This document shows positions 26,928-47,667 of a stretch of 64,000 bases of DNA, piece by piece. The position numbers and the translations under genes are program-made. Origin of the DNA: an uncultured delta proteobacterium (GTDB taxonomy: Bacteria; Myxococcota_A; Polyangia; Fen-1088). Numbering within the stretch: position 1 is the first letter of the stretch; every line of letters begins with the position of its first letter. The notes beneath the pieces are model-generated. The model saw only the letters and a program-made list of their open reading frames with translations, made no database searches and was not told the DNA's origin. The stretch lies in contig CAWCMR010000025.1 of NCBI GenBank assembly GCA_963796685.1, forward strand, positions 1,216,001 through 1,280,000, given 5' to 3'.

Positions 26928-29900
26928 TTGAGCCGACTATCCATACCTTCCCTTTTCGCTCGAGTTGCCAGCGACAATCCCGGTGCTACTGCCCAATGCA
27001 GCTACGCAGCTGACACCTGGCATCGGATTGACTACGCGACCCTTCTCCGGCAAGCCCGGCAGGTTTCTTCGGCGCTGAAGTCCGCTGGCCACAAGCCGGG
27101 AGATGCGGTGGTCCTCCCGTCGGTGCGCACGTCGCACCTTTGCGGACACCTGCTGGGCATTCTGTGGGCGGGCGGCCATTACGTGTTCATCGACCCTCGC
27201 TACCCACGCGAACATCAGGCATTCGTTGCACAAGAATGCGGATCACGGCTCGGACTGCTTGAGGAAGGCAGCCCTTCCCTGGATGTCGCGGTGCACTGGC
27301 TGGGCGTCGATTGGAATAGAGAGCCCCCGGATGATAGCGACCCCAGTCCCGATTCCGAACTACCCGCCTACGTCGTCTTCACGTCTGGCTCGACCGGAAA
27401 ACCCAAGGGGGTCGTGGTCCCGCATCGAGGCGTGGTTCGGTTGGTCCGGGACACCAGCTATATCGAATTTTCCCCCCGCCAGGTTTACCTCCAACTGTCC
27501 GCCTTGAGCTTTGATGCGTCAACGCTCGAGCTCTGGGGTCCGCTGCTCAACGGCGGCACGTGTGTCTTGCACCCAGACTCCGGGGCCACGACCGCTGCAT
27601 CCATCAAAGACAGTCTTGAGTCCCAGGGGGTCACCACGCTGTGGCTCACGTCGTCTCTCTACAACACCATCATCTCAGAGCATCCCGAGGCCATCCGGTC
27701 TGTGCGACAGTTGTTGGTAGGTGGGGAGGCGCTGTCGGTCACACACATTCGGCGTGGCCTGGAGTTGCTGCCCGAAACCCAGATGTTCAACGGGTATGGC
27801 CCGACTGAGAACACGACCTTCACAACAGTCTATCGAATTCCACGCACCCTGCCCGGTGACACCAAGCGTATTCCCATCGGTTTTCCGATCGATGGAACGC
27901 ACTGCGAGATCTTCAACGAGAAACTGGAACCCGAGCTCGACCAAGCCAAGCCCGGTGAGCTCATCGTCTTTGGTGATGGGCTGGCCTTGGGCTATCTGCA
28001 GCGCCCTGAGCTCACCTCCGAGAAATTCGTGGACGTCCACTGTGCCGACGGGCTGAAGCGTCGAGGGTACCGAACGGGCGATCTGGTTCTTCGCAATCCC
28101 GACGGAAGCTATGATTTCGTCGCCCGCAACGACAAGCAAGTCAAAATTGATGGCCATCGCATCGAGCCGGGAGAAATCGAACTGTATCTGAACCAACTGC
28201 CCGCCATTGCAGAAGCGAGGGTTATGCTGCGGGTGGGGCCCGAGGGACAGAAGCGGTTAGCCGCCTATTTCGTCACGAAAGCGCCACTGGATCGCTCAGT
28301 TCTGAGGCAGCAGTTGGAGCAACATTTCCCAGCGCACATGGTTCCTCACTTCTTGCTTCCCATGCAAGCATTGCCCAAGAATCAAAATGGCAAGCTGGAC
28401 GAATCGAAGCTACCAGACCCGTTCGCGGAGACCACGAAGCGACAACACGACCATGCCGCCGTTGCGCAGTGTTGGCGAGAGATTCTTGGGCGTTCAGTCG
28501 AGACCAGCGATAACTTCCTAGACGCGGGGGGAACCTCGCTCGAAGCCTTGCGGCTCGCGGAGAGGCTGGGAACCCGATTCGGCGTGGCACTTCCGGCGAC
28601 CTTCGTTTTCGAGTACCCGACCATCGACAGCCAGAACCGGTATTTTGCCCCGCAGGCGCCCAAAGATACTCTTGTGCATGCCGTCGGAGGATCCCGGATC
28701 CAGTTGGCGATCGTGGGTATGGCTGCACGCTTGCCAGGGGCTCGGGATGTCGAGGAGTACTGGCGCAATCTCCTGACCGGTCAAGAGAGCATCACGTTCT
28801 TCTCCGCCGACGAGTTGGATGCGGCCGTGGACGACCAGGAAAAGTCTCAGCCCACCTACGTCCGCGCCAAGGGGTTGGTCGCGGATTGCGACAAGTTCGA
28901 CGCGCCCTTCTTCGGCGTGTCTCCGATTGAAGCCGACCTGATGGATCCCCAGCATCGGATGCTGCTTGAGCTCGCCTGGCACGCATTGGAGGATGCGGGC
29001 ATTCTTCCCGGTGACGATGGTCGCCGCACGGGTGTATTCGTCGGGGCGAACTGGGCCCGGTACTACCAGCAGAACATCCTGCCCAACGCCGCCGTCATCA
29101 AGCGGGTCGGGGTCCTCGGCGCCGCCCTGGGGAATGAAACGGACTTTCTCTGCACGCGGGTCTCCTACAAGCTCAACCTGAAGGGACCCAGCGTCAACGT
29201 ATACACCGCTTGTTCCACCGGTCTGGTTGCCATAGCGCAGGCTTGCGCCGCGATCGAGCAGGGCCAGTGTGAACAAGCCATCGCTGGGGGAGTATCGCTG
29301 ATAACCCCCGTCAAAAGCGGCTATCTCTACCAGGAAGCGGGCATGCTTTCGAAGGACGGGCACTGCCGTCCATTTGACAAGGCCTCGAACGGCACCACCT
29401 TCAACGATGGTGCTGCGGTCGTGGTGATCAAACGCCTTGACCTCGCCGAGCGTGACCGAGACCGAATCTATGCGGTCATCAAGGGCTACGCCGTCAACAA
29501 CGATGGCGTCGAGAGGGCCAGCTTCACGGCACCAAGCGTGGCCGGACAAGTGGCGGTATACCGCCAGGCGCTTCGCAACGCCTCGGTACCCGCGAGTTCT
29601 ATCGGATTCGTCGAGACCCATGGAACCGCAACCCCGCTGGGAGATCCCATCGAAGTTGAATCGCTTCGACAAGCCTTCGATATGCAGGGTGTCCCAGAGA
29701 AGTCCTGTGCACTGGGCTCGGCAAAATCGAACATCGGGCATGTGATCCACGCCGCGGGTGCAGCGGGGTTCATCAAGGCTGTCCTCGCGGTGAAACACAA
29801 TCAGATTCCCGCCACCCTGTTCTTCACTGAGCCCAACCCCAAGCTGCAGCTCGACAAGACACCCTTCTTTGTCAACAACATGACCACCTCATGGGCCATC

Positions 29901-32900
29901 TCGGGCCCCCGCCGGGCGGCCGTGAACTCCCTGGGCGTCGGAGGAACCAACGCCCAGGTGATTGTCGAGGAGTATTCGGTCGAACCCGAGTGCCAGTCGG
30001 TGAGTGGGTCGCGTTCGTTTCCGCTGACACTCTCCGCAACGACCGCGGAAGCCCTCGAACGACAGGTAAATTCATATCGAGAATTTCTGGCGAAGGAAAA
30101 AGCAGTATCCTTGGTCAACGTGGCGTTCACCGCAGCCACTGCCCGCAAGGCCTTGCCATGGCGGCACTCGGTGTCCGGTTCCACCTCAGAAGGCTGGATC
30201 GAGGGTCTGCAGCAGTTCAAGCGCAGCCTCGGGATCAAAGCGCGGCCCATGGCAGATCCCAAGATTGGGTTTCTCTTTTCCGGGCAGGGATCCCAGCGCT
30301 TGGGGATGGGCCGTTGGCTGTATGACAACGAGCCATCCTACCGTCGCGTTATCGATCAAGGTGCGGAGCTCCTCCAGCGCTCGTCCGGAACCGATCTCAG
30401 AACGATCCTGTTTGCCCCGACATCCCAGGCCGCAGCGGACGTCGTACAACAAACGGCGGTGGCCCAACCTGCATTGTTTCTGATGGAGTATGGGCTTGCG
30501 CGGCTCTTCACCGAGCGTGGCATAAATCCTGACTTCCTGATTGGACACAGCATCGGCGAATTCGCGGCGGCGTGTTTGGCTGGCGTATTCAGCTTCGAGG
30601 ACGCGCTGGCCTTGGTCGGACGCCGCGGTGCCCTGATGCAATCGATGGCACCTGGAACCATGATGGTAGTGAAGGCCTCGCTCGATTCCGCGCGCCCCTT
30701 CATACAAGAGCCCATCTCACTGGCCGCTATCAATGGGCCCAAGCTCCTCGTGCTCTCTGGCCCCACCCAAGCGGTCGAAGAACTGCAGGATCGGCTGAAG
30801 TCGGAGAAGATAGGCTCCAGCATTTTGCGCACGAGCCACGCCTTTCATTCTTCGATGATGCAGGCAGCGGCGGACGCCTTCATGCAGGACATGGCCAACA
30901 GCCATCCCGGCCGGGCGCGAATCCCAATCATCTCCACCCATACCGGGCGACAACTGACGGACATCGAGCTCGCCTCGCCGGAGTACTGGGCATCCCAGCT
31001 CCGTCAGCCCGTGCTCTTCTCAGCGGCGGTGACGGCTGCCGCGGAAGGTTACGGCGACGCCAACCTGGCCCTGGTCGAGGTCGGTCCGGGAAACACGCTA
31101 TGCACCCTGGCAGCATCGCACGAAACCCTCGACAAGAGCCTCAAACTTGCCAGTCAACCCTCGTCAGGCATCACTGACAATGCCAGTCACGAACTGACAG
31201 ACTGTTTGGGAGCCCTGTGGTCTTCCGGTTTTCCAGTGAACTGGCAACAGCATTTCGCCGGAACGGGCGCTCGCAAGGTCCGGCTACCCGGGTATGCCTT
31301 CGCACGTGACCGCCATTGGCTCGATCTTCCCCGTCCGGAACCTTCACACCTTCCCCCAACCCCCCCCGTCCACGCGCTGGTGGAAACCATCCAGGAAATT
31401 CCCATGTCTCAATCAGAACATACGCAAAGCATACAACTCCAGCTCAAATCCATCCTCGAAGAGGTGAGCGGCTATGACCTGGCGGAGATGGACCCTACGG
31501 CACAGTTCAGCGAAGTGGGGTTGGATTCCTTGCTTCTCACCCAGGCCGCGACGGCCATCGAGCGGAAATACGCTGTCGGGCTGACCTTCCGTCATATGGT
31601 CGAGGAATACACGAGTCTGGGTGATCTGGCCGCGTTCGTGGCCACCAAGGTGCCTGTCGCCACCAAGACCGCGGCAGTTCCGCAGACAGCGGCCGTGCCC
31701 TCCGTCCCGGCTCAGCCCATTGCGGCCGCCACCTTGCCCGCCTTACCCGCCTTGCCCGCCTTGCCCGCCTACGCGGGGGTGCCGGTCGCGACAGGCAATC
31801 CGTTGCAAGATCTGATCAATACTCAGCTACAGGTCATGCTTCAGCTGGCGACGCTGTCGAGCGCCAACTTGCTTGCGTCCACGCTGAGGAGTTCCGGCGT
31901 CATGCCGGCTCAGACTGCCGCTCCCCAAGGTCCAGCGGCGGTGGCGACCACGCCTATGGCGACCACGTCGGTGGCAGCCGCCCCAATTGCTGCGTCCCCC
32001 ACCCAGGCCGAAGCCGAAGCGCCAGCCAAACCACGGCATACACCCGGCACACGCATCGCGCGCGAAGCGTCCGGTGTCCGGTTTACCTCTGCGCAGAAGC
32101 AATGGGTCGATGACTTCCTCAATAGATACCAGAAGCGATTCGCCCAGTCGAAGGTGATGACCCAACGCTACCGGAAGCGTCTTGCAGACCCTCGAACGGT
32201 GTCCGGTTTCAATCCGGAGTGGAAAGAGATCGTGTTTCCCATCGTGGTGAAGGGATCCAAGGGTTCGAAGCTGTGGGACATCGACGGCAACGAGCTGATT
32301 GACCTATCCAACGGTTTCGGACCGATATTCTTTGGTCACTCTCCAGAATTCGTCACGAAGGCAGTCAAGGAACAACTCGACATTGGGATCGAAACGGGCC
32401 CTCAGTCGCCCATGGCTGGCGAAGTCGCGGAGTTGTTCTGTGAGTTGACGGGCCACGACCGCTGCTGCTTCGCCAACACCGGTTCAGAAACGGTCATTGG
32501 GGCCGTTCGGCTGGCGCGCACGGTCACCGGCCGTCCCAAGGTGGTCATGTTCGAGGGAGACTACCACGGAATCTTCGATGAAGTCGTGGTTCGCCCAGGG
32601 CGGGACCAGCAGGCACTGCCAGCCGCGCCCGGCATCAACCGAGAGGCAACCGCCAACATGTTGATCCTGCCGTGGGGGGATCCCAAGAGCATCGACATGA
32701 TTCGGAAAATCGGCAAAGACCTGGCAGCGGTCTTGTGCGAGCCAGTGCAAAGTCGCAAGCCGGAGTTTCACAGCGCGGAGTACATCCAGCAACTCCGTCG
32801 GGTGACAGAAGAGATCGGCGCAGCGTTGATTCTCGATGAAGTCGTTACGGGCTTCCGGGTTCACGCCGGAGGCATCCGCAAACGGTTCGACATTGACGCC

Positions 32901-33572
32901 GACATGTGCTGCTACGGCAAGGTGGTCGGAGGCGGATACCCGATTGGCATCATTGGCGGCAAAGCCAAGTTCATGGACGCTCTGGACGGTGGACAGTGGC
33001 AATTCGGGGACACTTCGATTCCCGAGGTGGGGGTCACGTTCTTCGCTGGAACCTTCGTAAGACATCCTGCGGCCTTGGCCGCAGCCAGGGCGGTGCTGCT
33101 GAAGATCAAGGAGGGCGGAACGGGTCTCTACGACCAGATGGAGAAGAAGACCGCGGGCCTGGCTGCCGAGGCAAAGCGCTTCATCACCGAGATGAAGACC
33201 GAGGTGAAGCTGGAAGAGTTTTCATCGCTATTCTATCTCGCGGTACCTGCCAGCGCGCACTGGGGCCATCTGCTGTTTCTCATGATGACCTATGAGGGGA
33301 TTCACATTCAGCAGTACCGTCCAAGCTTCCTGACCACCGAACATGGTCCCGAGGATGTTCAGAAGATCCTCAAGGCGTTCAAGAATTCCTTGGCGCAGTT
33401 GATCCTTCAGGGGCTGATCGAAGGCGACGCAGCCGCCGCCAAAAAGTACCTCACCGGAAGCGGCGACATTCCCGCTGGCGCTCGACTGGGGAAGAACGCG
33501 CAGGGAGTGCCCGCGTACTTCATCGAAGACCCGAGCAACAAGGGGCAGTACATCGAGGTAGGCCGGCCATGA
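26928..33572 (+). CDS. Hybrid NRPS-PKS: A-PCP-KS-AT-ACP-class III aminotransferase
   Basis: A: FTSGSTGKPKG, YGPTE, YRTGD. PCP: GGTSL. KS: DPQHR, TACST, HGTAT, NIGH. AT: GQGSQ, GHSIG, HAFH. ACP: GLDSL. Aminotransferase: DEVVTGFR, YGKVVGGG. Confidence 0.95.
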   Translation: MSRLSIPSLFARVASDNPGATAQCSYAADTWHRIDYATLLRQARQVSSALKSAGHKPGDAVVLPSVRTSHLCGHLLGILWAGGHYVFIDPRYPREHQAFVAQECGSRLGLLEEGSPSLDVAVHWLGVDWNREPPDDSDPSPDSELPAYVVFTSGSTGKPKGVVVPHRGVVRLVRDTSYIEFSPRQVYLQLSALSFDASTLELWGPLLNGGTCVLHPDSGATTAASIKDSLESQGVTTLWLTSSLYNTIISEHPEAIRSVRQLLVGGEALSVTHIRRGLELLPETQMFNGYGPTENTTFTTVYRIPRTLPGDTKRIPIGFPIDGTHCEIFNEKLEPELDQAKPGELIVFGDGLALGYLQRPELTSEKFVDVHCADGLKRRGYRTGDLVLRNPDGSYDFVARNDKQVKIDGHRIEPGEIELYLNQLPAIAEARVMLRVGPEGQKRLAAYFVTKAPLDRSVLRQQLEQHFPAHMVPHFLLPMQALPKNQNGKLDESKLPDPFAETTKRQHDHAAVAQCWREILGRSVETSDNFLDAGGTSLEALRLAERLGTRFGVALPATFVFEYPTIDSQNRYFAPQAPKDTLVHAVGGSRIQLAIVGMAARLPGARDVEEYWRNLLTGQESITFFSADELDAAVDDQEKSQPTYVRAKGLVADCDKFDAPFFGVSPIEADLMDPQHRMLLELAWHALEDAGILPGDDGRRTGVFVGANWARYYQQNILPNAAVIKRVGVLGAALGNETDFLCTRVSYKLNLKGPSVNVYTACSTGLVAIAQACAAIEQGQCEQAIAGGVSLITPVKSGYLYQEAGMLSKDGHCRPFDKASNGTTFNDGAAVVVIKRLDLAERDRDRIYAVIKGYAVNNDGVERASFTAPSVAGQVAVYRQALRNASVPASSIGFVETHGTATPLGDPIEVESLRQAFDMQGVPEKSCALGSAKSNIGHVIHAAGAAGFIKAVLAVKHNQIPATLFFTEPNPKLQLDKTPFFVNNMTTSWAISGPRRAAVNSLGVGGTNAQVIVEEYSVEPECQSVSGSRSFPLTLSATTAEALERQVNSYREFLAKEKAVSLVNVAFTAATARKALPWRHSVSGSTSEGWIEGLQQFKRSLGIKARPMADPKIGFLFSGQGSQRLGMGRWLYDNEPSYRRVIDQGAELLQRSSGTDLRTILFAPTSQAAADVVQQTAVAQPALFLMEYGLARLFTERGINPDFLIGHSIGEFAAACLAGVFSFEDALALVGRRGALMQSMAPGTMMVVKASLDSARPFIQEPISLAAINGPKLLVLSGPTQAVEELQDRLKSEKIGSSILRTSHAFHSSMMQAAADAFMQDMANSHPGRARIPIISTHTGRQLTDIELASPEYWASQLRQPVLFSAAVTAAAEGYGDANLALVEVGPGNTLCTLAASHETLDKSLKLASQPSSGITDNASHELTDCLGALWSSGFPVNWQQHFAGTGARKVRLPGYAFARDRHWLDLPRPEPSHLPPTPPVHALVETIQEIPMSQSEHTQSIQLQLKSILEEVSGYDLAEMDPTAQFSEVGLDSLLLTQAATAIERKYAVGLTFRHMVEEYTSLGDLAAFVATKVPVATKTAAVPQTAAVPSVPAQPIAAATLPALPALPALPAYAGVPVATGNPLQDLINTQLQVMLQLATLSSANLLASTLRSSGVMPAQTAAPQGPAAVATTPMATTSVAAAPIAASPTQAEAEAPAKPRHTPGTRIAREASGVRFTSAQKQWVDDFLNRYQKRFAQSKVMTQRYRKRLADPRTVSGFNPEWKEIVFPIVVKGSKGSKLWDIDGNELIDLSNGFGPIFFGHSPEFVTKAVKEQLDIGIETGPQSPMAGEVAELFCELTGHDRCCFANTGSETVIGAVRLARTVTGRPKVVMFEGDYHGIFDEVVVRPGRDQQALPAAPGINREATANMLILPWGDPKSIDMIRKIGKDLAAVLCEPVQSRKPEFHSAEYIQQLRRVTEEIGAALILDEVVTGFRVHAGGIRKRFDIDADMCCYGKVVGGGYPIGIIGGKAKFMDALDGGQWQFGDTSIPEVGVTFFAGTFVRHPAALAAARAVLLKIKEGGTGLYDQMEKKTAGLAAEAKRFITEMKTEVKLEEFSSLFYLAVPASAHWGHLLFLMMTYEGIHIQQYRPSFLTTEHGPEDVQKILKAFKNSLAQLILQGLIEGDAAAAKKYLTGSGDIPAGARLGKNAQGVPAYFIEDPSNKGQYIEVGRP

Positions 33573-36500
33573 GTGGCGAATTCAACCCCTTTGCCGCAGG
33601 CGAGATTCTTCGCCTGTGTCCGACCACGGCCCCGCAGCAGGAGATCATTGCATCGGCGCAGTTCGGTGACGAAGCGAATACCGCCTTCAACGAAGCCGTG
33701 TCTATTCGCATTGATGGTCCGCTGGATGTGGAGCTCTTGGGCCGATGCCTGGACGTCTTGGTGGATCGTCACGAGATGCTTCGGGCGACGTTCTCGCGCA
33801 ACGGGCGAGAGATCTGTCTGCAGTCTCTCCTGCGTCCCAAGCTGCAGGTAGAGGACTGGCGCGATCGCTCGGCGGAGCAGAAGACACAGGCGCTGGACGA
33901 CTTGTGGCGCAACATCGCCGTTTCCCCGATGAACATCGAGGAAGGGCCGCTGCTGTTTGCCTGGCTGTTGCAAATGGAAGAGCAGCGCCATGAACTGGTC
34001 ATTGCCGGTCATCACTTGGTTTGCGACGGTTGGTCATTCGGACTGCTGCTGAACGAACTGGCCAAGCTCTACCAGACCCAGGCGGATCTTACGCGCCTGC
34101 CTCCAAGTCAGTCCTTCTTCGAGTTTGCCGAGCAGAATGACCTGCAGCAGGTTCGCAATGCCGACATCGACTTCTGGCGCGAGCAGTTCCGTCAGCAATC
34201 CCCCGCGCTGGACTTGCCTCTGGATTTTCCGCGCCCGAAACAGCGAACCTTCGCGGCCCGCCGCCACGACTTTCGGATGAACGTCGACCTGGTGGCGGCT
34301 CTGCCAAAGGCGGCGGCGAAACTTAAAGCCAGCCTGGTTCACACGGTGTTGGCAGGGTACTTCGTCCTGCTCTCGCGGCTCACGAGGGCGCAAGACCTGG
34401 TGGTGGGCCTGCCCGTCGCTGGTCAAGTGGCCATGAAGCGGCCCAATCAATTGGGTCACATGGTACAGTTGTTGCCCATCCGCGTGCAGTTGGATGAAGA
34501 CACGCCCTTCTCCGATGTCGTTGCGCAGGTGAAAAGCCAGGTCTTGACAGCCAGCGAGCATCCGAACTTCACCTTCGGGAAGCTTATCGAAGGAATGCGG
34601 TTGGACCGGTCACGGGTTCCGCTCATCGCGACCCTTTTCAACATCGATCAGCCGATGGGGCAGATGGACTTCGGCGCCTGCAAGGGTCATCTGCGCACCA
34701 TCCCGCGGGCGGCGGAGAACTTCGAGTTGTTCCTGAACATTCTTCAGGACTCCGGCCAATTGACTATCGAGGCCACCTACTCAACGGCGCTGTTTGCCGA
34801 GGAAAGCGTTGTCAGCTGGTTGCATAGCTTGGAGAGCATCCTCGCGTGCGCCATCAATGCACCGACGACGAAGGTGGGGGACTTTGCCCTCTGTCGTCAG
34901 CTGAATGCAATCCAGATCCAGACCAACGAGACAAGGGTCGCCACCACGCATCCCGACCTTGTGCGAGCCTTCGCCGCACAGGTGCACGCAACGCCCGACG
35001 CCATGGCAGTCTGCACGTCCGAGACGGAACTGACCTATCGCCAGCTCGACGAGAGAAGCAACGCTTTGGCTGCGGCGCTGGCCAAACGCAACATTGGCCA
35101 GGGCTCCATCGTTGGCGTTTGTTGCGAGCGCAGCGAGCGGATGCTGACGGCCGTCATCGCGGTGATGAAGTGTGGCGCGGCCTACTTGCCGCTGGACCCT
35201 GACTTCCCATCCGAGCGATTGGTTTACATGCTCCAAGATTCCGGAGCACAGGCCGTGCTTGAGGATGACGTGGTGCCCGCGGCGGTCCGCGAGGTTCCGG
35301 TGGAGCACTTGCATTTGAAAATGCTCGACGAGCTGGCCCCGCTGGCCGAACACTCGTTGCCCCCTGCTGACCCGGACCGGCTGGCGTACATCATCTACAC
35401 CTCCGGATCGACCGGCAAGCCGAAGGGGGTACGAATCCAGAATCGCGCCATGGCCAACTTCCTGGAAAGCATGGTCCGAGAACCCGGCCTCAAGCCAGAG
35501 GACTGCTTGCTAGCGGTCACGACGCTGTCCTTCGACATCTCCGTGCTCGAGCTGTTTGGCCCGCTCGTTTCAGGTGCACGGGTGCTGATTGCCACGCGAG
35601 CCCAAGCGAAGGATGGCGAGCAGCTGGCCACGTTGCTGAGCCGTCATCGTGTGAGCATCCTGCAGGCGACGCCCGCAACGTGGCGAGTTCTGTTGGCAAG
35701 CACCTGGGCCAGCACGGTCGCAACCAAGCCCCTGCTTGCGCTGTGCGGAGGGGAGCCCTTGCCTCCCGATTTGATCGTCGAGCTGCTGCCACGGGTCCGG
35801 GAACTGTGGAACATGTTCGGACCCACCGAGACGACCGTTTGGTCCACCTGCAAGCGCATCACAAGCGCGACGACCTTGGTGACGGTGGGGAAGCCCATTG
35901 CGAACACGCAAGTCTACGTGTTGGACCGCAACAACCAGCCACTGCCCGTCTCCGTGCCCGGTGAGTTGTGCATCGGTGGCGATGGCGTGACCCTCGGATA
36001 CCACAATCGTCCCGAGCTGACAGCGCTGCGCTTTGTCGAGCTGGCCGGGATGGGTCGAATCTACAAGACGGGAGACTGGGCAAAGCAGCTTCCCAACGGC
36101 GAGATTCAACATCTGGGACGCCTGGACGATCAGGTGAAGGTGCGCGGCTACCGCATCGAGCTGGGAGAAATCGAAGCAGCGCTTAAAGGATGCGCATCCG
36201 TGCTATCCGCAGCCGTTTACCTGTGGGAAGTAGGCGCCCAGGATGTGCGGCTGGTGGCCTGCTGCGTGCCCGCCGACAGCGAGCTGGACACCTCGACAAT
36301 CCGCAAGCAATTGCGGGCAGTTCTGCCCGCTTACATGGTGCCCCAGTACCTGTTGGCAGTTGGGACGATTCCCCTTACCCCCAACGGCAAGGTCGACCGA
36401 CGCGCCTTGCCCAGACCCGAACTAGCGGAATCCAAGATTCTGGGCCGGTCCGAGCTTCGGGGCCCTGCGGAATCCCTGATCGCCGAGGTTTGGACAGGCC

Positions 36501-38053: not shown

Positions 38054-38206
38054 ATGTTTGAAGCCAACTTCTTCGACAACGGTCGACTGTTCGACATGTA
38101 CCATCCGGGCGGAAGACGCGGAAGTGATCGCTTGCTGAGGTTTGGGCAAGGGACCAGCTGTCGCAATCTAGTTCCGGCGGAAAGTCCGCCTGAAGCATCG
38201 CGATGA
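38054..38206 (+). pseudogene. N-terminal remnant of an alpha/beta-hydrolase (paralog of 46939..47667)
   Basis: MFEANFFDNGRLFDMYHPGGRRGSDRLL versus MLEAAFFSKGRLFGCYHPAHDIASDRLL. Stop overlaps the CocE ATG. Confidence 0.75.
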
Positions 38207-40259: not shown

Positions 40260-40406
40260 ACCGCAGGTTGATCCCCTTGGTTGACGCGGATTGTTGCGGA
40301 AGGACGGGCCCACTCATGATTCTGCAGAGTACTGCGGCCGCGACCGATTTCAGCGAGCCCGAACCGAGAATTGCCCCCTACGATCGGGCCATTCCTAGAG
40401 ATAAGT
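40260..40406. repeat. Direct repeat copy 2 (truncated FGE gene start)
   Basis: Minus strand reads MSGPVLPQQSASTKGINLR* versus FGE MSGPAPSQHSASTKGINLRS. Confidence 0.85.
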
Positions 40407-40697: not shown

Positions 40698-41696
40698 ATG
40701 AGGATTGCTAGGTTCATTTTGTCGCGAGGTCTAGTTTTCGCTGGTTTTGGGCTGATGCTTCTCGCGGTCCTACTTGGCGGAAGCTGCCGGACAAGTTCCC
40801 CAGTTTCGAAGTTCACGAGCCCACCGGATGGAAGCGGCGGGGGAGGGACAGGCACGTCCGATGCGCAAGGCACCGGGGGTTTGGCGTCGACAGGTGGCAG
40901 CGTGACAAGCACTTCGGTAGCCATGTCCGGCTGCTCGGCGACAGGACAAGCCACTGGTGATCTGCATTTCTCGACCAAGGACGGACGCGGCAGGGCCCGC
41001 GACTATGAAGTTCTCGTTCCGGTGACCTATTCGTCCGGTGTTCCGCTCGCCGTTACGTTCCATTTCCATGGCGCAGGAGGAACCGAGGCAGGGGCCAAAA
41101 ACGATGGGCTGCAAAACGCGACTGGAGCAGCTGCCAACTCAATTTTCGTGTTTCCGCAGGGCGTTCAGTTCGGCAGCTACGGCGTTGGTTGGGACGACTC
41201 CTGCTCGGGCTACGACGTCGTGTTCTTCGACAACATGGTGGCGGATCTGCAGGGCAAATACTGTGTCGATCCTAACCGACTCTACGTGTCGGGATTTTCA
41301 TGGGGCTGCGATTTCGTGACGGCTTTGGTGTGTTGTCGCGGCAACCGGCTACGCGGGGTCGCGGCCGCGTCGTGCAGCGACGAATTCAGCGACTCTGCCA
41401 ACTACCAAACCTACGCGAATTATCCTTGCCCGGCTGCCAATGCCGCCGCGATTCGTTTCACGCACGACGTGAGTAGCGATGGTGCGTATACCGCCCAGCA
41501 ATTCGCGTCGACGGGTCAGCTTTACCGATCGCTCAGCTCTTGCTCGGCAACATCATCGCCCACGTCACCTTCGCCCTGCGTCTCCTATCAAAGCTGCAAG
41601 AATCCCGTGGTTGAATGTGGATACTCCGGAATTGGACATGCCTTGCCGCCCAATTGGGCCAGCGATACCTGGAATTTCTTCAGCCAGCTTCGCTGA
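40698..41696 (+). CDS. Secreted/lipoprotein esterase (LpqP/feruloyl-esterase-like), paralog 3
   Basis: GGAGG RBS, LLGGSC leader, GFSWG. Catalytic domain nearly identical to paralog 1. Confidence 0.85.
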   Translation: MRIARFILSRGLVFAGFGLMLLAVLLGGSCRTSSPVSKFTSPPDGSGGGGTGTSDAQGTGGLASTGGSVTSTSVAMSGCSATGQATGDLHFSTKDGRGRARDYEVLVPVTYSSGVPLAVTFHFHGAGGTEAGAKNDGLQNATGAAANSIFVFPQGVQFGSYGVGWDDSCSGYDVVFFDNMVADLQGKYCVDPNRLYVSGFSWGCDFVTALVCCRGNRLRGVAAASCSDEFSDSANYQTYANYPCPAANAAAIRFTHDVSSDGAYTAQQFASTGQLYRSLSSCSATSSPTSPSPCVSYQSCKNPVVECGYSGIGHALPPNWASDTWNFFSQLR

Positions 41697-41767
41697 GTGG
41701 ATGCAGCGGCACAAAGTTACGCGCCCTTGCTTGTCGATGGTGTCGAATCGAGTGGCGCCAACCCTTA

Positions 41768-43058
41768 GGCCATGCACCAGAATTAACTCGTCAACTTCGC
41801 CAAAGTGTGACTATATTGCCGGGTGCTTCGCAACGAGGGACTGGAGGCCGCAGTCGTAAGCAAGTATTCGGCAATCGCGGCTGTGCTTGACGAGCGAGCG
41901 CGTCGGCTTTGGGCAGCCGCCGAGTCGCGTGCGATCGGATATGGTGGGGATGCACTTGTGTCCGCGGCGACTGGCCTGGCACGAGACACGGTTCGTCGCG
42001 GTCGATTGGAGATCGAGGAGGGAGTCTCCGCTACAGGCCGAGTTCGTCGCGTTGGAGCCGGGCGGCCAAGCTTCAAGAAGACGCAACAAGGTCTGGAAGT
42101 GGCGCTGGAGAGACTGGTGGACCCGCTCACACGCGGCGATCCCATGTCGCCACTGCGATGGACGTGCAAGAGCCGAGCGAAGCTGGCTGCGGCGCTCTCG
42201 GCGGATGGCTGGACGGTGAGTTCTACGACCGTGGGACGGCTTCTGCACGGCCTTGGCTATCGCCTGCAGGCCGTGCAGAAGAGCCGTGAAGGAACCTCGC
42301 ATCCGGACCGCAACGAGCAGTTTGAGTACATCAACGCGACCGCAGAGAGGTATCTGCGACGCAAACAGCCTGTCGTATCGGTCGACACCAAGAAGAAGGA
42401 ACTCGTCGGTGATTTCAAGAATGGCGGACGGGAATGGCAACCGAAGGGCACGCCGGACAAGGTGCTGGTACACGATTTCCCTGGCGACTCGGTGGGCAAG
42501 GCCATTCCGTATGGCGTCTACGACATGGCTCGCAACGAGGCGTGGGTCAGTGTCGGCCGAGATCACGACACACCCAAGTTCGCGGTCGCTTCGATTCGGC
42601 AGTGGTGGAAAACGATGGGTCAGCAGGCGTACCCCGAGGCCAAGAACCTGTTCATCACTGCCGACGCAGGAGGAAGCAACGGGTATCGGGCACGCGCCTG
42701 GAAGGTCGAATTGCAGAAGTTCGCAGACGACAGCGGATTGCGGATCCGAGTCAGCCACTTTCCCCCTGGTACGAGCAAGTGGAACAAGATCGAGCATCGG
42801 CTCTTCTGCCACATCACGCAGAACTGGCGTGGCAAGCCATTGCGCACCTTCGAAACGATCGTGGATTTGATCGGCAATACGCGAACGGAAGCAGGCTTGC
42901 GGGTCAAGGCCAAGCTCGACCTGCGCAAGTACAGTACTGGCGTGGAAGTTTCAGAGACTGAGATGCACAGGCTCTCATTGCGACCGCACACGTTCCATGG
43001 CGAGTGGAACTACGAGCTGCAACCCCGCGAGTTGACTAGGTAATTAGGATCAAAGGCC
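41768..43058 (+). mobile_element. ISAzo13-family insertion sequence, copy 2
   Basis: Same ends as copy 1; same orientation. Confidence 0.92.
41823..43043 (+). CDS. ISAzo13-family transposase
   Basis: Protein identical to 20166..21386. Confidence 0.95.
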   Translation: MLRNEGLEAAVVSKYSAIAAVLDERARRLWAAAESRAIGYGGDALVSAATGLARDTVRRGRLEIEEGVSATGRVRRVGAGRPSFKKTQQGLEVALERLVDPLTRGDPMSPLRWTCKSRAKLAAALSADGWTVSSTTVGRLLHGLGYRLQAVQKSREGTSHPDRNEQFEYINATAERYLRRKQPVVSVDTKKKELVGDFKNGGREWQPKGTPDKVLVHDFPGDSVGKAIPYGVYDMARNEAWVSVGRDHDTPKFAVASIRQWWKTMGQQAYPEAKNLFITADAGGSNGYRARAWKVELQKFADDSGLRIRVSHFPPGTSKWNKIEHRLFCHITQNWRGKPLRTFETIVDLIGNTRTEAGLRVKAKLDLRKYSTGVEVSETEMHRLSLRPHTFHGEWNYELQPRELTR

Positions 43059-43061
43059 TAA

Positions 43062-44378
43062 GGACCCGCTCAGGAACAACTTGATTAGGGCATGACGATT
43101 GGGGATCGACAGAAGGTCGAGAACGTGACTTATGGTGGGGATGGCAGACGAGGCAGAGATTCGGAGAAAGTACGAGGCGCTTGAGTGCGTAATGGACGAG
43201 CGCCTGCGCCGGTTGTGGGCAGGCGTGGAGGCCGAATGCAGCGCTGGGGGCATTGCCGCCGTGGAACGCGCGACTGGGCTGTCACGCACCACGATTCGGG
43301 TGGGACGAGATGAGCTGCGCAACGGCATCGAGCCTGCTGACGTGGTCAATGTGCGCCGCCCCGGTGGCGGGCGCATCTCGCTTGAGGAACAGCATCCGGA
43401 ATTGCTGACGACGCTGGAGAGTCTCGTGGATCCAGTCACGCGTGGCGACCCGGAGTCGCCCTTGCGCTGGACGTCGAAGAGCACACGCAAGCTGGCGGAA
43501 GAATTGGCGGCGCGGGGCTATCAACTCAGTCCGCAGAAGGTCGGGCAGTTGCTCAATGCCAGCGGCTACAGCCTGCAAGCGAACCACAAGACCACCGAAG
43601 GCTCCGCGCACGTCGATCGCGATGCACAGTTCGAGTTCATCAACGACCGCGTCGATGCGATGCAAGGACGTGGCGCACCGGTCATCTCGGTAGACACCAA
43701 GAAGAAGGAACTCGTGGGGGACTTCAAAAACGGAGGGCGCGAGTGACAACCGCAGGGCGCGCCAGTCCCCGTGCGCGTGCATGACTTCATCGACAAGGAC
43801 CTGGGCAAGGCGATTCCGTATGGCGTCTACGACATCGGCTTGAACACCGCCTGGGTCAGCGTAGGCGTAGACCACGACACCGCGGAGTTTGCAGTGGAAT
43901 CCATCGGCCAGTGGTGGCGCAACATGGGAAAGAAGGCCTATCCCGAAGCAACGGAGTTGCTTATCACCGCGGACGGTGGCGGGAGCAATGGCTACCGTTC
44001 GCGCCTATGGAAGCTCGAACTGCAGCGGCTCGCGGACCGAACCGGGCTCACCATCGGTGTCTCGCATTTTCCTCCAGGCACCTCGAAATGGAACAAGATC
44101 GAACACCGCCTGTTTTGCCACATCACGGAGAACTGGCGCGGACGCCCTCTCGTTGATCACGAGACCATCGTGCAACTCATTGGCAGCGTCCGCACATCGA
44201 CTGGACTCTCGGTCAAATCGAAGCTCGACGTCCGAACCTACCAAACCGGCATTACCGTTTCCGACGCACAGATGGACCAACTCAATATCGTCGCCGCCAC
44301 GTTTCACGGCGAGTGGAACTACACAATCAAGCCCACTCGCCCACAATGCCGGTGATCAAGTTGTTCCTGATCGAGTCC
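43062..44378 (+). mobile_element. Second, distinct ISAzo13-family element
   Basis: 24-bp IRs GGACCCGCTCAGGAACAACTTGAT / GGACTCGATCAGGAACAACTTGAT. TAA duplicated at 43059-61 and 44379-81. Confidence 0.92.
43132..44355 (+). pseudogene. ISAzo13-family transposase with in-frame TGA at 43744-43746
   Basis: GGRE*QPQG versus GGREWQPKG in the intact relatives. Both halves are in frame. Confidence 0.88.
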
Positions 44379-46061
44379 TAACCAGGAGCCTAGACCGGAC
44401 ACGGCCTCCATAATCAGCGCGGCTACGCGCGTGGTATCGTTGGCCGACTTGCCGTAGGGGTCCTCGATATCAAGTTGAGGAACCAACTGGAATATCCCGA
44501 GTGGAAGACAACGTTCCATTGCATCCGGGAAGCATCGCTCCATGGCCGCGAGGTTCTCGCTGTCCATGACGAGAATGAGCTGGGCCTCGCTCACCATTTT
44601 GGTATCAATCAGTTTGGACGAATGCGAAGTCAAGTCTACCCCCAGCTGTCGAGCAGCCTCAAGCACGTTTGTGGGCGACTTGCGGCCGGTTTTCCGGTGA
44701 AAACCAGCCGACGTGACCGTCATGTCCGGCATCAGCTTTCTGACGATCTGTTCGGCCAAAGGACTGCGACAAATGTTTCCATAGCAAACGAGAAGGATCT
44801 TCCTTATCTGACCTTTCTCTCGGGACAGTTGCTTGAGCTTTGATTGTGCCCGGTTGAGCAACCAGCGATCTTTGGCCTTGCGGCGAGCGAACCGAAACAT
44901 CCGCTCGCCCCACCGTCGGCCAATGTTTTTGGTGATCGCCCAGGTAACGCCGAGATCGCCCAAGTCAAAATGATCCCAGCTTTCCTTGCCGTATACAGGG
45001 CGCAACAGCTCAAGCAGCGTCCCGGTTCGCGACCGTGTGAAAAGTAACGGGTCGGAGCGGTTGGCCCTCAGGTTTTCCTTCTGCCACTCCAGGTCCGTCA
45101 GGAGATCCCGGGTGTAATAGCCCGTCTGGTACTTGGCCTGCTGAGAAGGTGGCTGACCTGTGGCGACTTGGAGAAGCCCAAGCGGAAAGTCGACACCGGC
45201 GTCGATGGATAACGCGAGCGATCCCCACAGGCGGGGATTGATCTCCATGAGACAAGGCGTATTCTGACCATCCCACTTGAATTCTACCATCGCGACGCCG
45301 TGCCATCGCAGCGCAGACATCAACTTGAGCGCAGGCTGCAACAGGGCATCGAAGGGTGGCACCGACCGACGGTAGGAGCTGCCACCGCCCGTCAGCGGAT
45401 ACTCGTGAACCCGCTCGTGCACAAACTTCCAGAGCGGATTTCCTTTCGAGTACAGCACATCGACCCCGAATCCGATGCCGCCCACGTACTCCTGCTGCTG
45501 TATCGCCGTGTATGGAAGCAGCCGTCCCAGATACTTGCTCCTTTCTTGAGCCGAACTGGCGATGCAGGGAGCCTCGGTCACCATGTCGCCGTCGATGTCG
45601 AACTTGCTCCGCACCGGTTTGAGCACGATGGGATAGACGTGCCAATCTCGGATTTCGCCGTGTTGTGGGATCAGCGAAGTGGCAGGGGTCACGATACCAA
45701 GACCAGTGGCGAATTTTTGCGTTGCCTCCTTGTCAAGCGCCACATCGAGCGATTGATTGGCAGCGATAACTGCGCGTATCCGACGAGGATCTGATTCGTC
45801 GAGTTGACGCATGGCGTCCAGAGAGAGCTCGGTCGAGGGCACGATGAGGTCATACGCGTCAGGCTCAAGAGCAGAGAGCCACGCGACCAATTGGCCGGGA
45901 CTTGTCGGCTGTGTCAGTCTGTGCTGTGCGTAGCGCGAACGAAACGCAAGACAGTCTGGCCGGGAACTGGCGATGTCGGCTTTCACGCCATGCCTCCCGA
46001 GCGACTGCAGGGTCTCCAGGCCCGCGCGGCTGTGGGCATCTAGGATGAGCGCTGTGGGCAT
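44319..46061 (-). CDS. ATP-grasp domain fused to a low-molecular-weight protein tyrosine phosphatase; extreme C-terminus reads into the IS
   Basis: YPIVLKP, QQEYVGG, AMVEFK, LMEINPRLWGS. PTP: VCYGNICRS, SAG, IEDPY. Confidence 0.88.
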   Translation of the reverse strand: MPTALILDAHSRAGLETLQSLGRHGVKADIASSRPDCLAFRSRYAQHRLTQPTSPGQLVAWLSALEPDAYDLIVPSTELSLDAMRQLDESDPRRIRAVIAANQSLDVALDKEATQKFATGLGIVTPATSLIPQHGEIRDWHVYPIVLKPVRSKFDIDGDMVTEAPCIASSAQERSKYLGRLLPYTAIQQQEYVGGIGFGVDVLYSKGNPLWKFVHERVHEYPLTGGGSSYRRSVPPFDALLQPALKLMSALRWHGVAMVEFKWDGQNTPCLMEINPRLWGSLALSIDAGVDFPLGLLQVATGQPPSQQAKYQTGYYTRDLLTDLEWQKENLRANRSDPLLFTRSRTGTLLELLRPVYGKESWDHFDLGDLGVTWAITKNIGRRWGERMFRFARRKAKDRWLLNRAQSKLKQLSREKGQIRKILLVCYGNICRSPLAEQIVRKLMPDMTVTSAGFHRKTGRKSPTNVLEAARQLGVDLTSHSSKLIDTKMVSEAQLILVMDSENLAAMERCFPDAMERCLPLGIFQLVPQLDIEDPYGKSANDTTRVAALIMEAVSGLGSWLGLDQEQLDHRHCGRVGLIV

Positions 46062-46096: not shown

Positions 46097-46942
46097 CTAC
46101 TTCAAGTCTCCACGAAAATGCGTGAGTTGCTCGGCTGCCCAGCTTTCAATCGCGTTGAGCAGGCGCTGGCGGTGAGACTCCACGGGATACAGGTGCTGAG
46201 CGTCGGGCCAGTAGTATTCCCGACAAATCTTTTCTAACCCGGGGATCCCCAAGGATTTTGCAAATTGGCCCTCAAGGTTGTAGCAGTCGTAAACATCGCC
46301 TGTGAAGACCATGAGGAGCCGACCATCGGTTTCGACAAGGCTCATGACGCATCGCTTTAGGTCATCAGGACGAGGAAGATCGCGCAAGCCAAGATCGGGG
46401 CTGGTTCCGGCCGGGGTTGCTGCGCCAAGGCCGAGGCGCCGAATCAACCTCCCGGCCACGCGGGCCCACCGGCGCCGGTCCCACACTCTCGACTTCAGGT
46501 AGCGGTATAGGAAGCCGCGGTCGCGCGGCGAGCGGACATCAAACAGCATCAGGCCACGAATACGCAAGTCAGACGCCGACAACTTGATGCCGTTGTCCGC
46601 ACCCGAACAAAGACCCATGATCACCAACGGCCGCGGACCAAACTGACGCTCCAGAGCTTCACAAAGGTATTTCCAGTCGAGCGCCACGGACTCGCGATTG
46701 CTCAGGCCCTCCCGCGGTGGTGTGTCGCCCTTGCCCGAGAGATCCATGCGAACGCACAGGTACCCTAATGCCGCCAATCTGCGCGCGGCTAGTACGTTGA
46801 GCCGGTAGGGCTCGGCTCGATGGAGCACGCCCGGATTCAGCATGACCACGATGGGGGCAGTCTCGGGCTTCTCGGGCAGGGTGACCATCGCAAATCCGCG
46901 GCCACCCTCTCCGTATCGGAGAGGCTTCTCTTGGATAGTCAT
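46097..46942 (-). CDS. Alpha/beta-hydrolase-fold protein (exosortase-associated hydrolase 1-like), Cys at the nucleophile elbow
   Basis: LNPGVLHR, RMDLSGKGDT, GLCSGAD, DAQHLY. Confidence 0.78.
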   Translation of the reverse strand: MTIQEKPLRYGEGGRGFAMVTLPEKPETAPIVVMLNPGVLHRAEPYRLNVLAARRLAALGYLCVRMDLSGKGDTPPREGLSNRESVALDWKYLCEALERQFGPRPLVIMGLCSGADNGIKLSASDLRIRGLMLFDVRSPRDRGFLYRYLKSRVWDRRRWARVAGRLIRRLGLGAATPAGTSPDLGLRDLPRPDDLKRCVMSLVETDGRLLMVFTGDVYDCYNLEGQFAKSLGIPGLEKICREYYWPDAQHLYPVESHRQRLLNAIESWAAEQLTHFRGDLK

Positions 46943-47667
46943 TTGAGCCTCCGCGCAATGGCCTCAAGGACAGCCTTGGGCGCGAGGTGCCCGGTGTGGA
47001 GCGGCGGCCACGTGTAAGGGTAGCCAGAATACTCAGCGCCATCGACTGCTTGTGCTTCTTGAGAAACGATCTGATGGACCCGTGTGCTCTTTCTGAGCGC
47101 TGTGAGGTCCACGCGCAGGTCGCCGATGCCTCCACGCAAATCGGGTGTTAGGTGAAACATCTCGAATGAGGCTGTTTCGGGTACGATGTTAGCGTTGCGG
47201 GCAGTTTCCAGGTGCGTCCGTGTCAAATGCGCATCGGACTGTGCAAGGAAGTTGACATATTCGGCCCCGCTCGTGGCGACGTCCCAGAAGACATACTCGG
47301 CGATGGCCGGATGGCGCACCTGAGCGGCTAGAGTGGCGCCGAACCGTACGCCGCAGAGGTAGACCTGGCTGGCTCCGGATAGTGCTATTCCCTCCTCGAT
47401 GGCGTCGCGCACATCCTCCAGCCAGGTCTGCACGGTGGCTTCTTCCAGAAGCCCCCAAGACTCTCCGGTTCCGAAGTAGTCAAAGCGAAAAACGTGAGTT
47501 CCCGCTGCTGCGCAGCCCCTAGCCAGGTCGCCCAGCGCCTTGTAGCAGCGTCGGTACTCGTCGAACAAGGGTGAGCAGATAACGAGAAGGCGATCGGAGG
47601 CAATATCGTGAGCGGGGTGGTAGCACCCGAACAATCGGCCCTTGCTAAAAAACGCGGCTTCCAGCAT
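46939..47667 (-). CDS. Alpha/beta-hydrolase-fold protein (exosortase-associated hydrolase 2-like), Arg at the elbow
   Basis: LFGCYHPA, PLFDEY, RFDYFGTGES, GVRFGATLA, VFWD. Confidence 0.78.
   Translation of the reverse strand: MLEAAFFSKGRLFGCYHPAHDIASDRLLVICSPLFDEYRRCYKALGDLARGCAAAGTHVFRFDYFGTGESWGLLEEATVQTWLEDVRDAIEEGIALSGASQVYLCGVRFGATLAAQVRHPAIAEYVFWDVATSGAEYVNFLAQSDAHLTRTHLETARNANIVPETASFEMFHLTPDLRGGIGDLRVDLTALRKSTRVHQIVSQEAQAVDGAEYSGYPYTWPPLHTGHLAPKAVLEAIARRLK

Follow-up and report, generated by a model that had tools for sequence, protein, structure and literature searches.

A Thiotemplate Cassette in a Polysaccharide Gene Island of an Uncultured Polyangia Bacterium: A Candidate Glycan-Tailoring System

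The window analyzed here is a 64,000-nucleotide (nt) stretch of DNA from an uncultured delta proteobacterium (GTDB lineage Bacteria; Myxococcota_A; Polyangia; Fen-1088), covering positions 1,216,001 to 1,280,000 of the forward strand of contig CAWCMR010000025.1 (C25) in GenBank assembly GCA_963796685.1. It holds two coupled genes for a hybrid of nonribosomal peptide synthetase (NRPS) and polyketide synthase (PKS) together with genes for surface polysaccharide. An earlier, sequence-only reading had described a thioesterase-less A-T-KS-AT-ACP-aminotransferase plus C-A-T-C line inside a Wzx/Wzy locus and had proposed that its product is transferred to the glycan. The description is borne out by the order of Pfam domains and by a polysaccharide gene island of at least 118 kb, and the glycan-tailoring interpretation as a whole is partly supported. 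The view favored here is that the cassette is one member of a widespread, uncharacterized thiotemplate family that travels with surface-polysaccharide loci.

The assembly line and its hydrolase pair

The first gene (26928..33572, plus strand) encodes a hybrid NRPS-PKS of 2214 aa, assigned from Pfam and motifs as A(Val-like)-T-KS-AT(malonyl-type)-ACP-class III aminotransferase. Pfam places AMP-binding at residues 10-357 and 416-489, PP-binding in two stretches, KS at 593-964 and AT at 1115-1402; the C-terminal part matches PP-binding at 1505-1571 and Aminotran_3 at 1770-2079. Its stop codon overlaps the start codon of the second gene in the sequence ATGA, so that the two are translationally coupled. 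The second gene (33569..38041, plus strand) encodes an NRPS of 1490 aa with the order C-A(Gly-like)-T-C*, as judged from Pfam, specificity code and motifs (Condensation in two stretches, AMP-binding at 468-812, PP-binding at 971-1030), and its best PDB match is module 2 of LgrA. Across the domains of both proteins the Pfam E-values range from 1e-8 to 1e-125.

The catalytic motifs are whole in KS, AT, the first condensation domain of the NRPS (C1) and both carrier domains. KS keeps the catalytic Cys, His and His in TACST, HGTAT and NIGH, and C1 reads HHLVCDG. AT carries GHSIGE and HAFH, which we take to indicate malonyl specificity.

The closest solved relatives of the loading A domain are amino-acid A domains (LgrA, SrfA-C and others), and the domain keeps the FDAS motif, including the Asp that binds the alpha-amino group. 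Its ten specificity positions read DALWLGGTFK, presumably a Val-type code. For the second A domain they read DILQLGMVWK, presumably a Gly-type code, with the Gly module of LgrA as best match. The Val-like code is identical in 20 A domains of the homologous loci described below, and DILQLGM[VI]WK likewise occurs in 20. A full-text literature search returned no paper for either code, and valine and glycine are presumed substrates. Judged by its sequence, the loader takes an amino acid as starter unit and is not a fatty-acyl ligase. A fatty-acid (MycA-like) starter was rejected on the amino-acid-type A domain, FDAS and the Val-like code. Thus, from the analogy to MycA-type acyl-peptides drawn earlier, the KS-AT-ACP-aminotransferase part stands, but the fatty-acid loader does not.

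Neither a PF00975 thioesterase nor a reductase was found by Pfam on the window open reading frames (ORFs) scanned, and these ORFs likewise gave no match to a transporter family. The sequence-only reading had noted the lack of a visible thioesterase or exporter. This holds for the scanned ORFs, and no exporter family recurs beside homologous loci; nevertheless, a T-TE protein is encoded 12.5 kb past the window end.

The terminal C domain of the NRPS (C*; C2 in homologs) reads HQLVFDG, with Gln in place of the catalytic second His. The corresponding positions are HQ, or NQ in one case, in the clade of the window (L001, L003, L004 and L005; L numbers denote loci). Among 23 C2 domains from metagenomes, 15 also have HQ, at identities as low as 35%. 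As HQxxFDG is kept across the clade, it is a clade feature rather than random decay. The earlier proposal that the terminal C domain catalyzes offloading is not supported by this result; given HQxxFDG, such a role is unlikely in the clade of the window. HHxxxDG is retained in 19 of 33 genome-locus C2 domains, and some of these proteins, for example those of L037 and L045, have a second carrier motif behind C2; C2 is therefore probably catalytic in distant members of the family. By analogy with the X and interface domains discussed below, C* in the window could possibly act as a docking surface for the hydrolase pair or for the JmjC oxygenase.

The hydrolase pair is encoded on the minus strand by two alpha/beta-fold genes that overlap by 4 nt: hydrolase 2 (abh2; 46939..47667) and hydrolase 1 (abh1; 46097..46942). 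Abh1 has Cys112 at the nucleophile position, together with His250 and Asp135, while abh2 has Arg108 at the nucleophile position and is a putative pseudo-enzyme. TIGR03100 (hydr1_PEP) and TIGR03101 (hydr2_PEP) are their best or sole NCBIfam matches, at 33.1 bits for abh1 (below the cut-off of 168.45) and 70.4 bits for abh2 (below the cut-off of 202.75); the same families match below cut-off in L003, L031, L034 and L052. The nucleophile elbow of abh1 is GxCSG in 17/17 homologs, with Cys112, Ser113, Gly114 and His250 invariant. In abh2 homologs Arg occupies the nucleophile position in 14/14 sequences and GxRxG is found in 13/14, with no invariant His. One canonical hydr1_PEP protein (210 bits, cut-off 168) reads GLCDG and the product of its adjoining gene GIRFG. 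Judging from this single canonical example, the Cys/Arg signature is common to the canonical hydr1/hydr2_PEP family, and by their motifs and profile matches abh1 and abh2 are distant kin of the hydrolase 1/2 pair associated with exosortase A.

Abh1 and abh2 are predicted to form a heterodimer. The complex prediction, which covered abh1 with abh2 alone and was supplied with its own alignments, gave ipSAE values of 0.90, 0.90 and 0.89, with 0.00 for the best of three controls; the mark applied to this score is passed by 116 of 157 solved complexes and by 2 of 215 mismatched pairs. Contacts agreed between model runs by at least 71%, and the partner pLDDT was at least 88. A fold search with the abh1 model (pLDDT 86) led only to esterase, lipase and thioesterase folds of a generic kind and pointed to nothing more specific. 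No signal peptide was recognized by eye on either protein. From general enzymology, a Cys nucleophile paired with a dead partner would fit acyl transfer better than plain hydrolysis.

Two further genes accompany the cassette. A CocE/NonD (S15) hydrolase whose hydrophobic N-terminus resembles a signal or anchor (38203..40047, plus strand; TIGR00976 at 322 bits, cut-off 66; PF02129 and PF08530) has counterparts that come after hydrolase 1 in L001 and in many metagenome loci. An ATP-grasp protein fused to a Wzb-like low-molecular-weight tyrosine phosphatase (44319..46061, minus strand; PF15632 and PF01451, with Wzb-like NCBIfam matches) forms an operon-like string with the hydrolase pair; its homolog in L003 heads a cassette string that includes the PKS.

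The polysaccharide island and its rearrangement

A run of polysaccharide genes spans positions 3 to 13785. It opens on the plus strand with the 3' part of a gene for a Wzc-type tyrosine autokinase that runs off the window start (3..902; best NCBIfam match the XrtA-associated TIGR03018, 111 bits, below cut-off) and a CE4 polysaccharide deacetylase with no obvious signal peptide (899..1717; PF01522, E 1e-21). On the minus strand there follow a GT4 glycosyltransferase (1797..3137; PF00534/PF13692, best NCBIfam match TIGR03088, below cut-off), a second CE4 deacetylase (2930..3805; PF01522, E 8e-26), another GT4 (3802..5172; PF00534, E 2e-40), a Wzy-type polymerase/ligase-like membrane protein (4944..6416; PF04932 Wzy_C, E 8e-19), an S-adenosylmethionine-dependent methyltransferase (7850..8836; PF13489, E 3e-26) and a third GT4 (8814..10013; PF13692, E 4e-43). 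The run continues on this strand with an Sfp-type 4'-phosphopantetheinyl transferase (PPTase; 10178..11047, alternative ATG at 10987; PF17837 and PF01648) and a Wzx flippase (11025..12644; PF13440/PF01943), and is headed by a JmjC/cupin oxygenase (12850..13785; PF08007). The parts of a Wzx/Wzy locus present here are Wzx, Wzy_C, three GT4s and the end of a Wzc-like kinase, with more Wzx, Wzy and glycosyltransferase genes in the flanks. No priming transferase or Wza was found in the window; the nearest Bac_transf genes lie at C25:1314719-1316128 and near C25:1179099, and an FHA-Wza fusion lies at C25:1308463-1311243.

Several genes of this run are tied to the cassette. The PPTase gene comes directly after the Wzx gene in the same direction; depending on its start, it overlaps the Wzx gene by 23 nt or begins 37 nt past the Wzx stop codon. 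PPTase homologs stand beside the cassette in L005, L016 and L061. Its place in one run with Wzx and the GT4 genes had been noted earlier and stands; it had also been taken for the only PPTase in view, but of the four PPTase-like matches in the genome three lie outside the window. Wzx is 38-43% identical to the cassette-adjacent Wzx of the Rhodocyclaceae loci L034 and L052. The JmjC protein is 57% identical to products of cassette-adjacent genes in L013, L045 and L019 and 42% identical in L003, and in metagenome loci its gene comes after those for S15 and the methyltransferase. This TIGR04325-family methyltransferase, which stands beside S15 in metagenome loci, is encoded in the window at 14084..14929 (plus strand; 196 bits, cut-off 80), divergent from the JmjC run.

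On the far side of the synthetase, the minus-strand order from 50688 to 44319 is epimerase, sugar dehydrogenase, NRPS relic, hydrolase 2, hydrolase 1 and ATP-grasp/Wzb-like protein. The first two are an NAD-dependent sugar epimerase/dehydratase (49681..50688; PF01370, E 7e-57) and a nucleotide-sugar 6-dehydrogenase (48290..49615; TIGR03026 at 417 bits, cut-off 190). Polysaccharide genes resume on the plus strand at 57932..61119 with a GT2 glycosyltransferase (57932-58975) and a GFO/epimerase fusion. The 20 kb upstream of the window hold genes for an O-acyltransferase, a GT2, a FemAB-like PF13480 protein, a GH123-like protein, a CE4 deacetylase and another Wzx. In the 40 kb past the window end there are four GT4 genes, one GT-Wzy fusion, a Wzx and a second thiotemplate set. 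As polysaccharide genes thus continue beyond the window for 20 kb or more on the upstream side and 40 kb or more on the downstream side, the island measures at least 118 kb. MBOAT had no match on the window ORFs scanned, and an Acyl_transf_3 gene lies about 8-9 kb upstream. TIGR03098 and TIGR03099 had no match among the window ORFs.

Some features of the island stand apart from the cassette. The upstream Wzx copy (C25:1212714-1214244, in two tblastn pieces) is 62% identical to that of the window. The second thiotemplate set (C25:1292458-1316128; L086 and L087) lies inside an adjoining Wzx/Wzy locus, next to a priming transferase, the FHA-Wza fusion and a DegT aminotransferase. It comprises the T-TE protein 12.5 kb past the window end (980 aa, with a 620-aa N-terminal part that has no Pfam match) and also an acyl-CoA dehydrogenase, an AMP-ligase, KS, KR, AT and a PPTase. 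A partner-switching set (FHA protein, GAF-SpoIIE phosphatase and RsbW-like anti-sigma kinase; 52981-55295, plus strand) stands between polysaccharide genes. At 61373-63205 (minus strand) a 610-aa protein with two SUEL-type lectin domains is encoded, with 18-nt tandem repeats at 62198-62457 and a 276-nt duplication.

The Wzx run and the PKS gene had been read as parts of one locus. They do share one island, but about 12 kb of insertion sequence (IS) elements and unrelated genes (about 15000-26900) separate them: secreted esterase-like genes, a frameshifted JmjC gene, ISL3, ISAZ013-type and IS4-like elements, a dipeptidase fragment and an FGE-sulfatase-like gene. The frameshifted gene is a second JmjC-like copy (16832..17601, minus strand; two tblastn pieces in different frames, 27-31% identical to JmjC) and adjoins the ISL3 element, which has 10 near-identical copies in the genome. 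The fragment of an M20 dipeptidase (23022-23807, minus strand; partial match to a beta-Ala-His dipeptidase profile) adjoins the IS4-like element. Three paralogous secreted esterases resemble PHB depolymerases (15037-16545, 23687-25060 and 40629-41696); 99-nt tandem repeats at 15311-15705 encode a Gly/Ser/Thr-rich linker in the first, of which 15778-16545 is 91% identical to 40929-41696.

Two ISAZ013-type elements (20108..21412, PF07592 at E 2e-139, and 41765..43068; both plus strand) share 98.9% identity over 1305 nt and the same orientation, and the 7.3-Mb assembly has no other full copy; a third, broken copy occupies 43132-44355. The pair brackets a 20-kb block with PKS, NRPS and S15 in a layout like that of a composite transposon, and no target-site duplications were recognizable at the outer ends of the copies. 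A direct repeat of about 97-122 nt (26579-26675 and 40254-40350), 80-84% identical and with only two copies in the genome, also flanks PKS-NRPS-S15; its first copy overlaps the 5' end of the FGE-sulfatase-like gene. The inverted copies at 19196-19373 and 52797-52962 were considered as an inversion scar and rejected as such; they belong to a dispersed, MITE- or REP-like repeat about 180 nt long, of which the genome has more than 20 partial copies.

The NRPS paralog of the sequence-only reading is indeed followed by the two alpha/beta-hydrolases and the ATP-grasp/phosphatase gene, but is itself a relic of 157 aa (47678..48151, minus strand) left by an internal deletion in a C-A-T-C NRPS. In BLASTP against the intact NRPS, its residues 1-117 match the N-terminus at 73% identity, and its final 42 aa match the C-terminus at 45%. 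We infer that the window holds two paralogous cassettes decayed in complementary ways. A resident cassette would have lost its synthetase (NRPS relic, frameshifted JmjC) and kept its hydrolase pair, while the IS-bracketed PKS-NRPS-S15 block, which the IS pair may have delivered intact, would bring the synthetase without a hydrolase pair and may complement the resident cassette.

The same features allow the bleaker explanation that two cassettes have been dispersed and in part destroyed by IS activity and that no product is made here, whatever the role of the family in other genomes. Besides the relic and the frameshifted JmjC paralog, five or more IS-related genes occupy the interval 17679-44355, and the hydrolase pair lies 6-9 kb from the intact synthetase on the opposite strand. 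Nevertheless, the frames are open and the catalytic motifs conserved in PKS, NRPS, S15, hydrolases, JmjC, methyltransferase and PPTase, and the HQxxFDG of C2 is conserved across the clade. Moreover, three RNA libraries from peat contain contigs with 95-96% identity to parts of the PKS gene, the PKS/NRPS junction (33060-33691), NRPS and S15; they come from a relative rather than the window strain, may include DNA carry-over and give no ranking of expression. In sequencing runs, word shares were at most 0.20 throughout, and uncovered stretches, such as 40008-42008 in the RNA runs, are not informative. Taken together, a dead remnant is quite improbable.

A conserved cassette family and its polysaccharide neighbors

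A genome scan with the C1 domain as query and one genome per species gave 80 loci. By record titles their lineages are Proteobacteria, Bacteroidota, Myxococcota, Planctomycetota, Acidobacteriota and Bdellovibrionota-type. In 48 of them a KS is matched upstream and in the same direction, and 14 more, mostly incomplete, show only the AT/aminotransferase end. In 26 loci the hydrolase pair lies behind the C-A-T-C NRPS, the arrangement that defines the pair subfamily. In the 35 loci of a thioesterase subfamily (B), most of them from Bacteroidota, a PF00975 thioesterase and a PPTase come after C-A-T. Over all 80 loci the cassette partners were counted as abh1 26, abh2 27, JmjC 6, TIGR04325 methyltransferase 9 and S15 4, and the PPTase family recurs in 30. 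No conserved transporter or exporter, regulator or resistance gene was found among the recurrent neighbor families of these loci.

A second scan, of metagenome contigs, was anchored on abh1 with a six-sequence alignment and also gave 80 loci. Synthetase genes are present in all 26 with at least 6 kb of upstream sequence, and abh2 stands beside abh1 in 69 of the 80, many of which are incomplete. The usual order is PKS-NRPS-abh2-abh1-S15-MT-JmjC (for example L115-L117, L121 and L150; MT, methyltransferase). The window holds all genes of this order, but scattered. No paper on the cassette was found in literature searches.

Polysaccharide genes were counted within 10-kb flanks with one set of tblastn queries and thresholds throughout; Wza, Wzc, Wzx, Wzy and priming transferase served as hallmark genes. 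A hallmark gene lies within this distance in 9/26 loci of the pair subfamily, 3/35 of the thioesterase subfamily and 0/19 others (12/80 in total), and any glyco gene in 11/26, 7/35 and 3/19 (21/80). At equal distance, 1.9% of positions in the window's own genome have a hallmark match and 10.1% any glyco match, or 8.6% when the island is excluded. Among metagenome loci with at least 3 kb downstream, 21/40 have a glyco gene and 4/40 a hallmark gene.

The association proposed from the window does extend to other genomes, as seen in the 9/26 pair loci against the 1.9% base rate and in individual gene strings. In the Variovorax loci L037, L047 and L068 the order on one strand is PKS-NRPS-PPTase-hydrolase 2-hydrolase 1-Wza-Wzc-priming transferase. 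The Rhodocyclaceae loci L034 and L052 are co-directional strings that end in hydrolase 1-FemAB-like-Wzx-GT2, and when the UDP-glucose dehydrogenase (UGDH), FemAB-like protein, Wzx and GT2 of L034 are compared with the window's genome, the best matches fall within the window or at most 26 kb from it. Two other loci have an XrtA/PEP-CTERM setting. The genes that flank L003 (Pseudomonadales) encode an XrtA deacetylase (TIGR03006 at 407 bits, cut-off 276), PrsT (358 bits, cut-off 312) and a PrsR-like regulator. L076 has ligase_PEP_1 and dCO2ase_PEP1 upstream, and an XrtA ATPase (TIGR03015 at 347 bits, cut-off 324.5), a tyrosine kinase and a chain-length determinant downstream. Exosortases are present in the genomes of L068, L003, L034 and L045, as counted at genome level with some contigs short. 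On this comparative evidence, a functional tie of the cassette family to Wzx/Wzy or XrtA-type polysaccharide loci is well supported.

Covalent decoration of the polysaccharide by the cassette product is tentatively favored, with a confidence that falls just short of an even balance, and several observations weigh against it. The sequence-only reading had named a lack of exopolysaccharide (EPS) neighbors at most homologs as a ground for refutation, and most homologous loci do lack them: within 10 kb, glyco genes are absent from 59 of the 80 loci (in the pair subfamily, from 15 of 26). The same is true of 19 of the 40 metagenome loci whose downstream sequence is 3 kb or longer, and the 35 thioesterase-bearing loci are hallmark-positive in only 3. 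Six of the nine hallmark-positive pair loci are from Variovorax, which reduces the independent lineages to about five or six. The base rates come from a single genome, and detection relied on tblastn with a limited query set. The closest relative (G012, same genus; NRPS 73% identical overall and 81% in the best segment) has, for 24 kb downstream, an rRNA-methylase-like gene, a TonB-receptor-like gene, unknowns and glutamate synthase, with no EPS homolog; its upstream side ends at a contig edge, and the N-terminal part of its PKS is absent from the assembly. A close ortholog occurs in only 1 of 12 other same-genus genomes searched, and this together with the IS bracketing means that the synthetase block may be a recent arrival whose position is accidental. 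Moreover, none of the genes was identified as a transferase known to act on a sugar, the fold of abh1 is that of a generic esterase or thioesterase, the Val, Gly and malonyl assignments follow general code-to-substrate rules, and no exosortase (PF09721) was found in the window's genome (assembly 88.6% complete).

Some of these observations would suit a free diffusible diamino-acyl dipeptide, which might serve as a signal or protease inhibitor, for example, or be a pro-drug that the exported S15 enzyme matures, with the hydrolase pair as a trans thioesterase and EPS proximity explained by a shared accessory island or by co-regulation in biofilms. The many loci without a glyco gene and the non-EPS surroundings of G012 point this way, as do the classical PF00975 thioesterase of subfamily B, the likeness of the abh1 fold to esterases and PKS thioesterases, and the signal- or anchor-like N-terminus of S15, which would befit a periplasmic maturation enzyme. 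Against a free metabolite stands the lack of a conserved transporter, regulator or resistance gene among the recurrent neighbors, and an in-line thioesterase or reductase or a dedicated exporter was not found on the scanned window ORFs. The enrichment of hallmark genes, the co-directional strings with wza-wzc or wzx, the PPTase directly behind Wzx and the kinship of the hydrolase pair to a pair defined by XrtA EPS-locus context also weigh against it. Release of a diffusible product is rated less likely than decoration, but is a serious rival.

The XrtA context in turn raises the thought of another acceptor, for instance a protein that is secreted or sorted, or else a lipid anchor in the membrane, with the polysaccharide genes as fellow travelers in cell-surface assembly. 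The canonical hydrolase pair is defined by its exosortase-A context, two loci lie among XrtA/PEP-CTERM genes, and a transferase with a Cys nucleophile could serve any nucleophile. The failure to find an exosortase in the window's genome speaks against it, and the shared neighbors are Wza, Wzc, Wzx, glycosyltransferases, deacetylases and sugar dehydrogenases rather than sorting enzymes. Such an acceptor appears improbable.

Proposed route and comparison with known systems

If the product does decorate the polysaccharide, the following route can be proposed. The first A domain would load valine or a close branched-chain amino acid, which KS-AT would extend with malonate; the pyridoxal phosphate (PLP) domain would aminate the beta-keto group to give a 3,4-diamino-5-methylhexanoyl unit, and C1 would couple this unit to glycine on the second carrier domain. 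The terminal C-like domain, having lost the catalytic His, would probably be a docking surface, and for that reason the offloading step was moved from it to the hydrolase pair. The hydrolase 1/2 heterodimer would take over the chain as a thioester on Cys112 and pass it to an acceptor. The likeliest acceptor would be an amino sugar that the cytoplasmic CE4 deacetylases have freed within the lipid-linked repeat unit. Alternatively, the chain might be released by hydrolysis and then ligated by the ATP-grasp enzyme to a uronic acid supplied by the neighboring dehydrogenase. In its boldest form, the proposal makes the Cys-hydrolase/Arg-pseudo-hydrolase heterodimer a new offloading machine from carrier protein to lipid-linked repeat units and, together with the exosortase-A set, part of a cross-phylum decoration of EPS with cationic diamino-acyl-peptides; in this full form it is doubtful, though conceivable.

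If the proposal is correct, many bacteria of soil, peat, freshwater and the sea have surface polysaccharides with decorations made by assembly lines, which sugar-composition analyses would miss and whose genes mining tools class as orphan secondary-metabolite clusters. It would give hydrolase 1/2, annotated from context for about two decades, a first testable function (a Cys acyl transferase with a pseudo-enzyme partner), and add a release mechanism to NRPS/PKS enzymology. Because culturable Variovorax carry the cassette directly upstream of wza-wzc, the question is open to ordinary genetics and EPS chemistry.

The beta-amino modules of the MycA/iturin type have the order KS-AT-ACP-aminotransferase-C. 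The window shares with them a KS-AT-ACP part without KR, DH or ER, followed by a class III PLP aminotransferase and then a C domain. It differs in its loader, an amino-acid A domain (FDAS, Val-like) instead of a fatty-acyl ligase, in the placement of C on a separate, coupled protein, and in having only two modules and no thioesterase.

The X domain of glycopeptide synthetases and the interface domain of siderophore synthetases are non-catalytic, C-like NRPS domains that recruit trans-acting enzymes. They share with C* a C fold behind a T domain and the replacement of the catalytic second His, and the X-domain structures 6m7l and 4tx2 are among the PDB sequence matches of C*. As a possible counterpart of the recruited enzymes, the cassette has a conserved oxygenase of the Fe/2OG type (JmjC). 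The comparison is limited in that distant cassette members keep HHxxxDG.

D-Alanylation of teichoic acids by the Dlt system and the tetronate of Vibrio cholerae O1 exemplify carrier-protein-dependent tailoring of surface glycopolymers. There, as here, an adenylating enzyme loads a carrier encoded in a glycopolymer locus, and in those systems the acyl group reaches the polymer. They deliver a single simple acyl or aminoacyl group through MBOAT or other known transferases, of which MBOAT was not seen on the scanned window ORFs, whereas the window system adds chain extension, transamination, a peptide bond and the Cys-hydrolase/pseudo-hydrolase pair.

The closest parallel is the gene set of exosortase-A (XrtA/PEP-CTERM) EPS loci, which consists of a ligase (TIGR03098), a carrier protein, a PLP decarboxylase (TIGR03099), hydrolase 1 (TIGR03100) and hydrolase 2 (TIGR03101) and, to our knowledge, is known only from genome context. 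Literature searches found nothing on this set; the searched passages of the 2006 PEP-CTERM paper (PMC1569441) make no mention of its genes, and those of PMC13751637 have no relevant match to hydrolase, ligase or NRPS terms. Both systems have adjacent alpha/beta-fold genes that best match hydr2_PEP and hydr1_PEP and bear GxCxG/GxRxG signatures. In both, these genes are preceded by those for an adenylating enzyme, a carrier and a PLP enzyme, and both are located in EPS loci; L076 has the two sets next to each other. The differences are that the scores here lie far below the cut-offs and that the genome of the window, as noted, yielded no exosortase. In addition, a two-module NRPS-PKS with KS, AT and aminotransferase takes the place of ligase, ACP and decarboxylase. 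The window cassette looks like an enlarged cousin of the exosortase-A-associated set.

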